Assembly (NCBI GenBank): GCA_021156105.1
Contig: JAJNBD010000002.1
Span: 59,701 to 123,700 of the forward strand
Direction of reading: 5' to 3'
From: Gammaproteobacteria bacterium
GTDB taxonomy: Bacteria > Pseudomonadota > Gammaproteobacteria > CAISUE01
Length of the DNA: 64,000 bases
Made by a program: the position numbers and the translations under genes. The notes under the pieces were generated by a model. The model was not told the origin of the DNA and ran no database searches. It saw nothing but the letters and a program-made list of their open reading frames with translations. Shown piece by piece: positions 49,767-55,317 of the stretch. Position 1 is the first letter of the stretch. Every line of letters begins with the position of its first letter.

Positions 49767-50034
49767 TCAAAAATGTTTTTTCGCAAAAGCTCTTTCTGAT
49801 GCACTCTTTAGATATTTTTCAAGTGCAAAAGCTTTTTCTACCTCATCAAACCAAAAGACATTTTTTACTGACCATGAGACGATGTTTCGCAGTGTGTAAG
49901 GATTTTCCTTCGTTATGATCTTGTAATCTTTTTTTGAGATTGGATGTGCTGCCGGTGTAATAATGAATGGAGTTGGATTGAGTTTTAAGGATGTAAACGT
50001 ACCTATTGGAACGAGTGTATTTCGCGGTGCTGTG
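49767..50034 (-). pseudogene. GIY-YIG nuclease (UPF0213/YhbQ-like) pseudogene
   Basis: RYVYILKTQSNSIHYYTGSTSNLKKRLQDHNEGKSLHTAKH is followed, after a 1-nt frame change near 49885, by SWSVKNVFWFDEVEKAFALEKYLKSASERAFAKKHF-stop. There is no in-frame start codon near the GIY motif. Confidence 0.6.
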
Positions 50035-50096
50035 TCTTAAATATACTTTTATGCCATCATGGATAGCTGAGCCGTAGTAGCGCAAAGCGCGAAGGC

Positions 50097-50120
50097 TGGT
50101 GGAGGCGGCGGGAATTGAAC
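50097..50120 (-). repeat. distal att copy (duplicate of the last 24 nt of tmRNA)
   Basis: 24/24 identity with 53265..53288. Identity ends immediately beyond the repeat. Confidence 0.85.
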
Positions 50121-50218
50121 ACGAAACAAGGATTTTAATGCCTCTCATGAAAAGCGGTGAAAGACAATAAAAGACAATGTAAATCAAGTAATTAGCTGGT
50201 CTCTGCGAAAGTATTCAA

Positions 50219-50268
50219 ATTGTCTTTCATTGTCTCAAATTGGCTACGGATGATCCCCTGGTGATCCC
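50219..50268. repeat. composite box repeat, copy A (2x ATTGTCT at 10-bp phase + GATCCC-n5-GATCCC)
   Basis: ATTGTCT at 50219 and 50229; ATGATCCCCTGGTGATCCC at 50250..50268. The inverted ATTGTCT pair is at 50162..50178. Confidence 0.7.
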
Positions 50269-50359
50269 GCAAATTTTTCCTTTTAGTGCTAAATTAGCCA
50301 GAGGCAAGTCGTTCTTTGTTCGCGAACTGCGAACGCTTGCGACCTCTGTAATTTAAAAA

Positions 50360-51589
50360 TTATAATTCGATGCTATATCTTGGATGAAAAACTTGATGCG
50401 TTAAATTAACCCCCATAATTTCAGAGATTTTATATGCTTTGATACTTTCTGTTTTAATGTGTCCTTTTTTTAACTCATAAACGTACAGTAATAAATTCTC
50501 TGTTTTTGGTTGACGCAGCGAATATGGCTCAACTAACCGTGTGGTACCATTATATACAATTTCAACACATAATCTATTTCTTGCCGCATAACGAATTTGA
50601 TTTAAATAATAATTGGAAGCAACATTGACTCGGTGTCCAATTCCAAGTGTCCGCCTTTGTACGGGTTCTTCGGGGAAGTGAATACGAGGTAAAGTTTTTT
50701 CTGCTGTGTTGTTCGAAATGGTTGGTAGAATGATTTCTGTTGGTTGGTCATTTATCCACCATGACAATGCGTGTTCTAGATCCGCATAAAAACTTTCTAC
50801 AGGTGGCAATAGCTGAAGCTGGTGCCTGAGCTGATGATCCCAGTTAGATTTTAATTGTTCAAAATCAATACGAGAAAATATAGTATCAACAGAAGGTTCT
50901 GGCAGAGATTTGAATTTGAATTTTTCTTTTAAGCTGGCTCTGGCTTTTTCAATGCTTACATGATCTCTAAAATTTCTACTGATGTTGACGACATCATAGA
51001 TATCTCTTGCTCTTCCTTGCCTTTCATAAATTGCGCGAGTTTTTTCAGCTAAGATTTCATTAATGGAATAACAGTTAACTTTTGCGGGTGTGCTTGGTGC
51101 ATCGCTGTAAAAGTGAAAAACTTCTCGGTGGTCAGATGCGTCAACAATAATCTCATCATCGGTGATATCAAACTTTATGCGTTGGTGTTGGCGGGCCGGA
51201 AGATTTAATGGGCCAAGGTAGGTAAATTTTGCTACGTAGGTGATGTGGTTCTTTTTGTTGATGCTTTCCTCTATTTCTATTTCTCGAGTTTTTAAATTAA
51301 TTCCTGTTTGTTCATAAACAATTTCTGCTACATCATTCAATGCATTTTTTATTTCTTCTTTGCTATAGATTGAGTTGCTTCGTGCAGTGAAATCTAAATC
51401 TTCAGAAAATCGATAGGTTTCAAAGTAACATTTCTTTAAGCATGTGCCGCCTTTGAATAACCATTGAGATAGTTTTGGATGATTTGCAATCCCATGTAGC
51501 ACCCAACTCAAAACATAATCTTTCTCGACTGTAGAATGCAGTAAGTGTGTTGCGCTAGCGACTGAAAGGATTTCTTCTTTTGTAATCAT
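50360..51589 (-). CDS. AbiEii/DUF1814 nucleotidyltransferase toxin with an extra C-terminal WYL-like domain
   Basis: VEKDYVLSWVL and FKGGTCLKKCYFETYRFSEDLDF are the AbiEii signature. At 409 aa it is about 110 aa longer than usual. The start overlaps the upstream stop (ATGA). Confidence 0.88.
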   Translation of the reverse strand: MITKEEILSVASATHLLHSTVEKDYVLSWVLHGIANHPKLSQWLFKGGTCLKKCYFETYRFSEDLDFTARSNSIYSKEEIKNALNDVAEIVYEQTGINLKTREIEIEESINKKNHITYVAKFTYLGPLNLPARQHQRIKFDITDDEIIVDASDHREVFHFYSDAPSTPAKVNCYSINEILAEKTRAIYERQGRARDIYDVVNISRNFRDHVSIEKARASLKEKFKFKSLPEPSVDTIFSRIDFEQLKSNWDHQLRHQLQLLPPVESFYADLEHALSWWINDQPTEIILPTISNNTAEKTLPRIHFPEEPVQRRTLGIGHRVNVASNYYLNQIRYAARNRLCVEIVYNGTTRLVEPYSLRQPKTENLLLYVYELKKGHIKTESIKAYKISEIMGVNLTHQVFHPRYSIEL

Positions 51590-52410
51590 GAAAAATCTTC
51601 CAGGGGAATATTAATGCGAATTCCCCATTTGGTTATGATTGGTCCGGAATCTGGCCCATTGGGGTCTAAGTTAATAATCCCAGTTTTTATTTTAGCTTGT
51701 AATTTTTCTAGCCATGAATCTGGCATATGCATAATTTTTTCTGCGACGAATCCAAGGCGTCTGAATACCGCGCCATGATTTAGCCTTTCAGCATATTGCC
51801 ATAAAATTTCTGGATCTGCTTCCTTTTTTTGGAAATAAGCTTGGACAATTTCAATTGTATGACGACCACCGCCACCAATTTCTGGATTATCCAAAACATC
51901 GATGATCGTTCTATGTATATCTGCGATCAAAACAGGTTTGTTACTCGACCAAATTTTTTTGGTGCCAAAAATATTTTCTTCTGAAATAAATTTTGTAATG
52001 TAAGTGAGGCCGGCAATGGATTGCTCGCGCTTGCGTTGTTTTTGTGCAGTGAAGATAACGGTTGAATTGAAAATCTGTTCGGTAAGGTCCCAGTGTTCAG
52101 CAGCTGGCCAGCCAGAGATATAGCAAGGAGAAAATAATTCCATCGCAATTGCCCATGCGTCTTCAGGTATTGGGTTTGCGTTATCGGAACCTAGAGGAAC
52201 AATTTTGTATACGCCGGATTTTAAACGTTGTAACCATCCTTTTTTGCAAAGGCGAGAGAGAGCGAGGTTTGCATTAGTTCTGCTGTAACCAAATTCTTTT
52301 TCTAGATCTGTGGCTCGTACGGCGAGCTTTCCCATGCGGATCATAGTATCGATAATTTGTCGTTCTAGTTGACTAACACCATCCTGGCTTTTGATGTATT
52401 TTAAGCGCAT
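51586..52410 (-). CDS. AbiEi-family antitoxin / transcriptional regulator
   Basis: 274 aa with an N-terminal winged-helix (ATDLEKEFGYSRTNANLALSRLCKKGWLQRLKSGVYKIVP) plus an AbiEi-type C-terminal domain. It is translationally coupled to the AbiEii gene. Confidence 0.82.
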   Translation of the reverse strand: MRLKYIKSQDGVSQLERQIIDTMIRMGKLAVRATDLEKEFGYSRTNANLALSRLCKKGWLQRLKSGVYKIVPLGSDNANPIPEDAWAIAMELFSPCYISGWPAAEHWDLTEQIFNSTVIFTAQKQRKREQSIAGLTYITKFISEENIFGTKKIWSSNKPVLIADIHRTIIDVLDNPEIGGGGRHTIEIVQAYFQKKEADPEILWQYAERLNHGAVFRRLGFVAEKIMHMPDSWLEKLQAKIKTGIINLDPNGPDSGPIITKWGIRINIPLEDFS

Positions 52411-52437
52411 ATAACATCTATTCCTGATATTTATTGT

Positions 52438-52469
52438 GATTTAAATATACCATATGTTATATTTAAATC
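52438..52469. promoter_or_regulatory. 32-bp near-perfect palindrome, candidate AbiEi operator
   Basis: GATTTAAATATA-cCATATGt-TATATTTAAATC lies 28 bp upstream of the abiEi start codon. Confidence 0.5.
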
Positions 52470-52520
52470 GCAAATAATTTCAATAAATGATATTATATAC
52501 GCTTTCAATATTGATTTTCT

Positions 52521-53018
52521 ATGTGTAAATTAAAAGAGATTAAAAATTGCCTCAATTGCCATTTTCTTTGCTCGGAGCAAACGCACCCTACTCTCGGCTA
52601 TCAATCGCAGATAATAAGCAAACAGGTAAGAAAAAGGATTAGTGATAACCAAGCAACTTGGCCAATAACTTATCAAACAGATTTATCTCCTACTGCATTT
52701 TGTTATCTAGGTCATTGGAAGGAAAGCGACAACCTTCAGGGAGCTGCCCTTTATAAAATGTTAACAGTGCCCCATAAGAAATGTTTTTATAATTTTCAAG
52801 AGATGGGAGTGTCATTAGAAAAAGCGCATGAAAATTGGAAAGGCGAAAACGCGCGAAAAAGTTGGTGGTTAAAACAGTTAAGTGAGTTGGGCTGGAAGGT
52901 AGTGGGGAAAATTTTATTAGGCATTCTCTCAGTTTCGATAATTTTAAAATTCTGGAATTGGTTAGCATTACATATTCATTATGTGATAGATAAATTCTAC
53001 TTGTTAATTTGTAGTTAA
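52521..53018 (+). CDS. orphan protein (N-terminal CxxC, C-terminal TM helix)
   Basis: 165 aa, divergent from abiEi. It has CLNCHFLC near the N-terminus and a hydrophobic KILLGILSVSIILKFWNWLAL segment. The Shine-Dalgarno is weak. Confidence 0.4.
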   Translation: MCKLKEIKNCLNCHFLCSEQTHPTLGYQSQIISKQVRKRISDNQATWPITYQTDLSPTAFCYLGHWKESDNLQGAALYKMLTVPHKKCFYNFQEMGVSLEKAHENWKGENARKSWWLKQLSELGWKVVGKILLGILSVSIILKFWNWLALHIHYVIDKFYLLICS

Positions 53019-53147: not shown

Positions 53148-53216
53148 GTTGTCTGTGATTGTCTTTGATGGTTTGAATAATCATTTTTTTAATGAAAATG
53201 ATCCCCTGGTGATCCC
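53148..53216. repeat. composite box repeat, copy B
   Basis: GTTGTCT at 53148 and ATTGTCT at 53158 (10-bp phase); ATGATCCCCTGGTGATCCC at 53198..53216 is identical to 50250..50268. Confidence 0.7.
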
Positions 53217-53264
53217 ACAAAAAGCAAAGTAAAAATATTTGATGTATTAAATCAATGGGGTAGT

Positions 53265-53674
53265 TGGTGGAGGCGGCGGGAATTGAACCCGCGTCCGCAA
53301 GCTATCAATTTCAAGGTCTACATGCGTAGCACATTTTTGGTTTTCGTCACGTCACAGCCAATGGGCAGGCAATGCCGTGCTTAGTTTACTATTGTTTAAT
53401 CTTTAACAGGTAAACACTGTTAGAGACGGTCTCATGTAGAATGACCATTGTTTTCCGCCGCATGAGCACAGCAGAAACAATGGTGCTTGCCGTTTCTTAG
53501 GCGGCGCGCTTCATTTCAACTAGGCAGCTAAAGCTACGCGGTTGAAAGAAGAAGCGTTTGCAGCAGTGCGCTTTTTGTTTGCGTCTATAGTTTTGTAGCC
53601 TATTTTACGAGGGAATCTACCTCCTCGGCATGCGCTTAAAATCTCAATACCCACGTCGAAACCAGGTCGCCCCC
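53265..53674 (-). ncRNA. ssrA: transfer-messenger RNA (tmRNA)
   Basis: 5' GGGGGCGACCUGGUUUCGACGUGGG..., 3' ...GCGGGUUCAAUUCCCGCCGCCUCCACCA, with the G3-U acceptor pair. The internal tag ORF is GCA AAC AAA AAG ... GCU UUA GCU GCC UAG. Confidence 0.93.
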
Positions 53675-54945: not shown

Positions 54946-55317
54946 ATGCAAACAACAAATACAAATGAAGAACATACCCCATTACAACAAACTTCTAATG
55001 AACCAGCTCCTTACCCAACAGCGGGGCAAATAGCTAAAAGAGCGGCTAAAGGGGCAGCCGTTGGTGTTAGTTATGGCGTTGTATGTGGCGGGCTTGTGGC
55101 AGGCTCAGTGGCTTGCGGGGAAGCAACTGCAGCAATGGCGGCAGGCGCAGCTGTTCCCTGTGCGAGTGCAGCTGCAGTTCTTTCAAGCCCTCCTTTGATA
55201 GCTTGTATGACTGGTTGGGCAGGATTATGGGCCTGTTCAAGTGGATGGGGTGCAGCTGTTGATAATAATTTTTGCACAGATAATAGCAACGATTTGCCAC
55301 AAGCACGAGTTCCATAG
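54946..55317 (+). CDS. Gly/Ala/Cys-rich small hydrophobic protein
   Basis: 123 aa with a GGAG Shine-Dalgarno and its own terminator. The N-terminal 30 aa are polar, followed by a G/A-rich hydrophobic core with 7 Cys. Confidence 0.55.
   Translation: MQTTNTNEEHTPLQQTSNEPAPYPTAGQIAKRAAKGAAVGVSYGVVCGGLVAGSVACGEATAAMAAGAAVPCASAAAVLSSPPLIACMTGWAGLWACSSGWGAAVDNNFCTDNSNDLPQARVP

Follow-up and report, generated by a model that had tools for sequence, protein, structure and literature searches.

What does an abortive-infection toxin do with a second domain at its C-terminus? The question is raised by a 64,000-nucleotide stretch of DNA from a member of the Gammaproteobacteria (contig JAJNBD010000002.1, positions 59,701 to 123,700), the whole of which is called here the window. 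An open reading frame (ORF) of 409 amino acids with an ATG start, at 50360..51589 on the minus strand, encodes in it a toxin of the AbiEii type that continues well beyond the usual end of this family. AbiE has been described as among the most abundant anti-phage systems (PMC11375011), and no trigger that releases its toxin during infection was identified in the literature examined. A preliminary description had read the extra residues as a WYL-like sensor and the module as the best candidate for an undescribed variant system. Our analysis indicates that the tail, though divergent, is a genuine WYL-type, Sm-like barrel that has kept most of its nucleic-acid-binding face. The module itself is very probably a two-gene operon of the AbiE type (type IV toxin-antitoxin or abortive infection) with a WYL-bearing toxin, since both genes have Pfam and PADLOC matches, the toxin resembles MenT3, MenT4 and AbiGII, and an AbiEi gene lies directly upstream. 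The components of the operon are as follows.

50360..51589, minus strand: AbiEii-WYL toxin gene, 409 amino acids plus stop (Pfam, PADLOC, AlphaFold whole-protein model).
50735..51589, minus strand: DUF1814/AbiEii nucleotidyltransferase domain, residues 1-285 (Pfam PF08843, Foldseek, profile match, conserved columns).
50624..50734, minus strand: linker, residues 286-322, partly ordered, with residues 309-322 disordered and variable in length.
50360..50623, minus strand: divergent WYL domain, residues 323-409 plus stop, 87 residues forming a helix and five strands.
51586..52410, minus strand: AbiEi (COG5340) antitoxin/autorepressor gene, 274 amino acids, with an N-terminal winged helix-turn-helix and a C-terminal antitoxin domain.

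The N-terminal part of the toxin is an AbiEii nucleotidyltransferase, as had been proposed. Pfam AbiEii (PF08843) covered residues 31-269 with an E-value of 3.9e-38 and 132.2 bits (cut-off 22.5); the match ends at residue 269, and therefore about 125 residues lie past the standard domain. The three motifs quoted in the preliminary description (VEKDYVLSWVL, FKGGTCLKKCY and RFSEDLDF) are all present in the 409-residue ORF, with the correction that the last two are separated by four residues (FETY) and not by six. Foldseek matched residues 1-285 to MenT3/TglT and MenT4 of Mycobacterium tuberculosis with E-values from 5e-7 to 1e-5. A family profile (A1), built like the AlphaFold whole-protein model and the conservation analysis on 47 homologues, matched the AbiGII structure 9hlo (2.1e-15) and the MenT4 structure 6y56 (1.1e-6), and the core FKGGT...RFSxDLDF aligned residue for residue. 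Nine positions are invariant in the 47 homologues (G47, G48, T49, D64, D66, E182, K183, R185 and R190), and a tenth, D141, is shared by at least 90% of the sequences. The complete set of nucleotidyltransferase motifs (hG[GS], [DE]h[DE]h, h[DE]h and the C-terminal K/R motif) is found in the window toxin, and its catalytic motifs are intact.

Downstream of this domain, the linker contains a PRxxFP motif with a nearly invariant F305. Its residues 309-322 were modelled with a predicted local distance difference test score (pLDDT) below 50, the insertions and deletions of alignment A1 fall within it, and the rate of nonsynonymous change (pN) is highest there. The whole-protein model reached a pLDDT of 90.4 and a predicted template modelling score (pTM) of 0.88; such a pTM despite a disordered linker suggests that the barrel is docked on the nucleotidyltransferase in a fixed way in the predicted structure.

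To what fold does the tail belong? The string of residues that had been quoted as the tail corresponds exactly to residues 332-405. In the AlphaFold model, the region is made of a helix (323-337) followed by five strands (340-346, 349-360, 367-375, 378-387 and 391-400). A fold search was needed because sequence profiles were little informative: a search of the PDB with a profile of the tail (A2) gave no match, and a mixed profile of the two clades described below (A3) gave weak DriD matches (E 0.64) that were in register with the DriD WYL domain. A model of the tail alone was obtained with a pLDDT of 95. When this model was compared with the PDB by Foldseek, the 13 top matches comprised 11 WYL domains of DriD or PafBC and two spliceosomal Sm proteins; those of CapW and BrxR came at ranks 15-16. 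For the WYL matches, TMq was 0.64-0.75 (mostly at least 0.70), the root-mean-square deviation 1.7-3.8 Å and the probability 1.00. The best matches to the WYL domains of DriD, PafBC, CapW and BrxR had a TMq of 0.71-0.75 and a deviation of 1.7-3.5 Å, and generic Sm/LSm proteins reached a TMq of only about 0.5.

At the level of sequence, the tail scored 13.4-14.4 bits against Pfam WYL (PF13280), below the gathering score of 21.8. Matches below threshold were also found in 30 of the 41 family tails, the best with an E-value of 3.6e-4, and the PADLOC WYL model PDLC01652 matched the window protein at 6.9e-5. Stronger evidence came from a clade of longer relatives of 465-483 amino acids. Their tails score 24-28.4 bits with Pfam WYL, above the cut-off of 21.8, and are similar to the window tail with E-values of 1e-13 to 1e-18. 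Membership of the window tail in the WYL family is thus supported in sequence profiles transitively, through the tails of relatives to which it is homologous and which pass Pfam WYL, and not directly. Together with the fold search and the PADLOC match, this bears out the assignment of the tail to the WYL/Sm-like barrels. The clade of the window has drifted from the canonical motif (IKAYKISEI in place of RSYRVDRI). Across phyla, the tail shows strong conservation, with an invariant R-x-x-E-P-Y-S. The protein ends nine residues past the last strand of the barrel, leaving no WCX or dimerisation domain, and its N-terminus is the nucleotidyltransferase, so that the polypeptide has no N-terminal winged helix-turn-helix either.

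A long ORF could also arise from an artefact in which a separate gene, or non-coding sequence downstream, is joined to the toxin by an assembly error or a frameshift. The only observation on its side is that two related loci (L003/L004 and L026) have the tail as an ORF of its own, and we regard its probability as practically nil. The identical 409-residue protein was called on five contigs, the two places shown coming from different sources (JGI and Logan), and the same ORF is thus recovered across independent assemblies. Among the 120 best database homologues, 111 have 400-419 amino acids and nearly all span 100% of the query. In a scan at the species level, with one genome per species, at least 589 genomes encode a relative of the window toxin, and the locus counts given here refer to the best 80 of these at least 589 stretches. 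The nucleotidyltransferase and the tail form one continuous ORF in 77 of these 80 loci, which belong to other species of many phyla. When the tail was compared with four relatives, nonsynonymous differences (pN 0.23-0.30) were far rarer than synonymous ones (pS 0.70-0.87) throughout, as expected for purifying selection, which shows that the tail is translated and under constraint; the full-length model is also confident. The split in L003 (L003:5001-6233) and L004 goes back to one nonsense mutation, an in-frame TAA in place of the codon for the equivalent of S276, which leaves a 275-residue nucleotidyltransferase ORF and a separate 108-residue tail ORF; the toxin of L026 also looks interrupted in frame. 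These considerations rule out both the artefact and the idea that the split toxins represent a natural two-protein form. One further relative (L021), with 61% identity to the window toxin, has no tail and no remnant of it downstream.

The operon was equally clear. The stop codon of abiEi overlaps the ATG of the toxin gene by 4 nt, with abiEi upstream, and the two genes are translationally coupled. Its 274-residue product matched the PADLOC AbiEi model PDLC02271 over residues 13-266 (3.1e-76) and Pfam AbiEi_4 with 31.5 bits (cut-off 25), and PADLOC assigned both window proteins, AbiEi and AbiEii, to AbiE. An AbiEi homologue lies immediately upstream of the toxin in 78 of the 80 best loci, and the remaining two end at contig ends.

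Relatives of the window toxin occur in Gamma-, Alpha- and Betaproteobacteria, Bacteroidota, Acidobacteriota and Nitrospirota, and also in Gemmatimonadota, Spirochaetes, Planctomycetota, Patescibacteria and one metagenome-assembled genome of the Bifidobacteriales. The tail profile retrieved 992 representative clusters at E <=0.001. Nine of ten clusters sampled turned out to be AbiEii fragments, in which an AbiEii domain precedes the tail, and the tenth (P0228) had a WYL match only, a result with which stand-alone or helix-turn-helix-linked proteins bearing this subtype of tail were discarded. The longer relatives mentioned above constitute a sister clade (L027-L084 and L086; for example L047:4001-5428 and L086:2501-3925) of AbiEii-WYL proteins of about 465-483 amino acids with 37-41% overall identity to the window toxin. 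Their tails carry the canonical RSYRVDRI motif and are followed, after a low-complexity linker, by an extra conserved C-terminal module (YIYxCxxCGKKFxRKxxDxxLxPHKDKxGxPCxGRxG). This module has the CxxC...H...C pattern of a zinc ribbon, with weak Pfam zinc-ribbon matches, and is absent from the window protein. More distant AbiEii copies, with about 25% identity, were found on plasmids of Streptomyces sp. NBC_01455 (L085), Sinorhizobium mexicanum (L087) and Sphingomonas parapaucimobilis (L088). The RxxEPYSL tail is retained in all three (profile E 1e-14 to 1e-18) and accompanied by the zinc finger in two, and no AbiEi homologue lies within about 3 kb of any of them. In Streptomyces, a gene for a SMODS-domain nucleotidyltransferase (5.7e-11) immediately precedes the AbiEii copy, and the two could form a pair of signal synthase and AbiEii-WYL effector.

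If the tail is a WYL domain, does it retain the residues with which such domains hold their ligand? DriD contacts single-stranded DNA (ssDNA) through Y168, R176, R178, Y192, R204, W206 and R207 (PMC9186387). We transferred these positions to the window toxin through the weak in-register A3 alignment and counted their conservation over the 47 homologues.

DriD Y168 corresponds to Y346 of the window toxin, conserved in 46 of 47.
DriD R178 corresponds to R351, conserved in 47 of 47.
DriD R204 corresponds to K384, conserved in 44 of 47.
DriD W206 corresponds to Y386, Y or F in 47 of 47.
DriD R207 corresponds to K387, conserved in 35 of 47.
DriD R176 corresponds to T349, not conserved.
DriD Y192 corresponds to L367, not conserved; the same strand has a near-invariant Y369 two positions further along.

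Five of the seven contact positions are thus identical or conservatively replaced. By analogy with DriD, the tail probably binds short single-stranded nucleic acid.

How might such a domain serve the toxin? The biochemistry of the MenT toxins, which extend tRNA 3' ends and are controlled through phosphorylation of the active-site loop, provides the model: MenT3 and MenT1 are neutralised by induced phosphorylation of this loop (PMC11375011). By the same logic, and as suggested by the literature on MenT and AbiEii, the nucleotidyltransferase domain of the window toxin would add nucleotides to the 3' acceptor ends of tRNAs, with the arrest of translation as the outcome. AbiEi, judging from its family, would repress the operon and neutralise the toxin. 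Neutralisation might follow the example of MenA3 and MenT3, with phosphorylation induced in the G-G-T49 loop; T49 of this invariant loop would be the obvious candidate site. The tail would bind short single-stranded nucleic acid via Y346, R351, K384, Y386 and K387, and this binding would be coupled to nucleotidyltransferase activity. An AbiE operon with a tRNA-modifying nucleotidyltransferase whose WYL domain couples the binding of single-stranded nucleic acid to catalysis is the best overall explanation that we can offer, and we consider it nearly as probable as not.

In the leading version of this explanation, the tail would be a built-in sensor: as phages replicate or DNA is damaged, ssDNA or single-stranded RNA (ssRNA) would accumulate and license the toxin or boost it, in the way that ssDNA switches the WYL regulators DriD, PafBC and CapW. 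That the tail senses single-stranded nucleic acid and gates the toxin is a tentative proposal, built on this analogy, which we hold to be possible and somewhat short of probable. A weak hint comes from the distant plasmid copies, which have the same tail and no AbiEi nearby, one of them adjoining the SMODS-type gene. A bolder form of the proposal makes the WYL domain the infection sensor of this AbiE subfamily, a piece long absent from the picture of AbiE: ssDNA, ssRNA or a nucleotide signal from phage replication would directly switch on the nucleotidyltransferase, sensor and effector would be one polypeptide, AbiEi would act only as a safety catch, and the plasmid copies lacking AbiEi would be stand-alone or signal-driven versions. 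This bolder form seems to us rather doubtful. Several observations weigh against the overall explanation, sensory tail included. The window tail stays below the Pfam WYL threshold, and two of the seven DriD contacts (those at T349 and L367) are not conserved. Nor does the toxin have the WCX or dimerisation domain with which DriD and CapW complete their ssDNA pocket. AbiEi is kept almost everywhere, and the toxin is therefore not obviously self-gated; the existence of the tail-less relative with 61% identity means that the nucleotidyltransferase may work without the tail. Conservation of the tail across phyla fits a universal partner, be it tRNA or the nucleotidyltransferase domain itself, at least as well as a cue derived from phages. 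Finally, our literature search found no experimental work on any AbiEii-WYL or MenT-WYL protein.

Two other roles for the barrel have to be set beside that of a sensor. It might be an accessory RNA-binding module that holds the tRNA substrate, or another RNA, for example by a single-stranded 3' end, and that sets affinity, processivity or specificity with no part in infection sensing. Barrels of the Sm/LSm type typically bind the 3' ends of single-stranded RNAs, and the tail also resembles these proteins in structure. The basic and aromatic face has been kept under conservation, the motifs that are invariant across phyla would suit a universal ligand such as tRNA, and the zinc ribbon that follows the WYL domain in the longer clade gives the impression of stacked substrate-binding domains. 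Accessory binding of ssDNA or ssRNA, rather than switching, is likewise reported for the WYL domain of a bacterial PIF1 helicase and for WYL1, an accessory protein of Cas13d. However, MenT3, MenT4, AbiGII and the tail-less AbiEii models listed by PADLOC do without such a domain, as does the tail-less relative L021, and every WYL domain with a solved ligand complex among the fold-search matches is an allosteric ssDNA sensor. We rank the sensor only slightly ahead of the substrate-holding module, which comes close to it in likelihood and which we hold to be less probable than not. Should the domain nevertheless clamp an RNA substrate, it would show how toxins of this kind choose their tRNA targets.

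The barrel might, on the other hand, have lost ligand binding altogether and serve to dimerise the toxin, to dock the C-terminal domain of AbiEi or to stabilise the nucleotidyltransferase fold. The departure of the window clade from the canonical WYL motifs and from the Pfam threshold would be in keeping with such a loss, the high pTM suggests tight intramolecular packing, and AbiEi accompanies the toxin in 78 of the 80 loci. We find this explanation quite improbable, since the equivalents of the DriD contacts are still basic or aromatic and nearly invariant, the net charge of the tail read from its sequence is positive, and distant clades retain the tail with no AbiEi nearby.

The surroundings of the operon were also inspected, and they contain the following features.

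53265..53674, minus strand: transfer-messenger RNA (tmRNA, ssrA) gene, predicted by ARAGORN, adjoining the module.
50097..50123, no strand assigned: copy of the tmRNA 3' end (repeat family D1), 26 of 27 nt identical to 53265-53291; presumed far boundary of the islet.
50250-50273 and 53198-53221: second direct repeat (D2) of 24 nt, 23 of 24 identical, nested inside D1 and closer around the operon.
52411..52521, minus strand: candidate promoter/operator region of the abiE operon, with sigma-70-like sites and a palindrome; suggestive only.
52521..53018, plus strand: ORF165, 165 amino acids, divergent from abiEi, with a Cys/His-rich N-terminus and a hydrophobic C-terminal segment.

Because the D1 and D2 repeats bracket the operon beside the tmRNA gene, abiEi, abiEii and ORF165 sit on an islet of about 3-3.2 kb at the 3' end of this gene, a classic ssrA integration site. 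No integrase ORF was seen between the repeats in the ORF list of the window, and the islet may be either a nested insertion or what remains of a decayed island. At its boundary, a 113-residue ORF (49846..50187, minus strand) has a GIY-YIG match (1.1e-8) on residues 63-103 only, and its N-terminal part extends across the copied tmRNA end; the ORF seems to be a small GIY-YIG gene that has been truncated or frameshifted. ORF165 was considered as a third component of the system and ruled out: it has no Pfam match and no homologue at the 80 related AbiE loci, and its absence from these loci makes it probably cargo of the islet. The candidate promoter region contains three sigma-70-like sites on the minus strand, the best being TAGAAA-18-TATAAT (10 of 12 positions), with a region-wide count of 11 that is close to the mean of 7.9 in shuffled sequences. 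A 57-nt imperfect palindrome at 52397-52510, 77% complementary and AT-rich, spans the start of abiEi and the promoter-like sites upstream; it is a possible AbiEi operator, or an effect of composition. In AbiE systems, AbiEi controls its own operon by way of inverted repeats in the promoter. On the other side of the tmRNA region, before acpP/fabF, lies a 123-residue ORF (54946..55317, plus strand) with a very high content of Ala, Gly and Cys; the public contig has it as a called gene, and Pfam gave no match.

Is the architecture new? The expectation that AbiEii toxins end near residue 280 agrees with the characterised AbiEii and MenT proteins and with almost all the AbiEii models listed by PADLOC. 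One of these models, PDLC02317, with 396 positions, covers residues 1-409 of the window protein (3.4e-108), and the others listed have 203-324 positions. Makarova, Anantharaman, Grishin, Koonin and Aravind had already listed in 2014 the fusion of WYL to an "AbiGII-like nucleotidyltransferase (DUF1814)" and suggested that WYL senses a negatively charged ligand and regulates such Abi systems (PMC4012209). RefSeq labels full-length plasmid relatives "AbiEii/AbiGii toxin family protein". With this earlier listing, a PADLOC model that spans the whole protein, the RefSeq labels and relatives in many phyla, the proposal of an undescribed variant system does not hold, while the long form itself survives as a real one on the evidence of the five contigs, the single-ORF loci and the low pN relative to pS. 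The window protein adds a new and divergent member to an architecture already known, though experimentally uncharacterised. As Pfam WYL misses the window clade and annotation describes these proteins as plain AbiEii, censuses of WYL-linked defence undercount them. A subfamily that spans phyla and has a ligand-binding domain welded to its toxin would offer a concrete handle on the trigger of AbiE, with a candidate class of ligand (short single-stranded nucleic acid) and five residues (Y346, R351, K384, Y386 and K387) that can be named from the sequence.

Comparison with known systems places the module as follows. The AbiE systems of Lactococcus and Streptococcus agalactiae share with it two overlapping genes, the first for a winged helix-turn-helix antitoxin and autorepressor and the second for a DUF1814 toxin with the same catalytic motifs; in contrast, their characterised AbiEii toxins end with the nucleotidyltransferase fold, and the window toxin has about 125 additional residues ending in the WYL barrel. 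MenAT3 and MenAT4 of M. tuberculosis (MenT3 is TglT, Rv1045, and MenT4 is Rv2826c) provide the best structural matches to residues 1-285, the FKGGT...RFSxDLDF core of MenT4 is nearly identical, and their antitoxins are also of the AbiEi type. However, identity is only about 15%, and the MenT proteins have about 290 amino acids and no WYL domain. The fusion of Makarova et al. has the same combination of domains and the same regulatory suggestion; it was described in one sentence with neither structure nor experiment, whereas in our case the WYL domain is divergent and below Pfam's call, and the partner is AbiEi rather than AbiGi. The WYL domains of DriD, PafBC, CapW and BrxR are among the closest solved structures, with five of the seven DriD contacts kept or conservatively replaced. 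These proteins are DNA-binding regulators organised as winged helix-turn-helix, WYL and WCX, in which an N-terminal helix-turn-helix precedes the WYL domain and a C-terminal WCX or dimerisation domain helps to form the ssDNA pocket; the window toxin has neither of these flanking domains and bears its WYL on the effector enzyme. Finally, the AbiEii-WYL-zinc-ribbon clade, exemplified by Aromatoleum toluvorans Td21 and plasmid pCB3171_2 of Rhizobium sp. CB3171, has the same AbiEi operon, the same nucleotidyltransferase and a homologous WYL domain, and differs from the window toxin in its canonical WYL motifs, which pass Pfam, and in its CxxC...H...C module.

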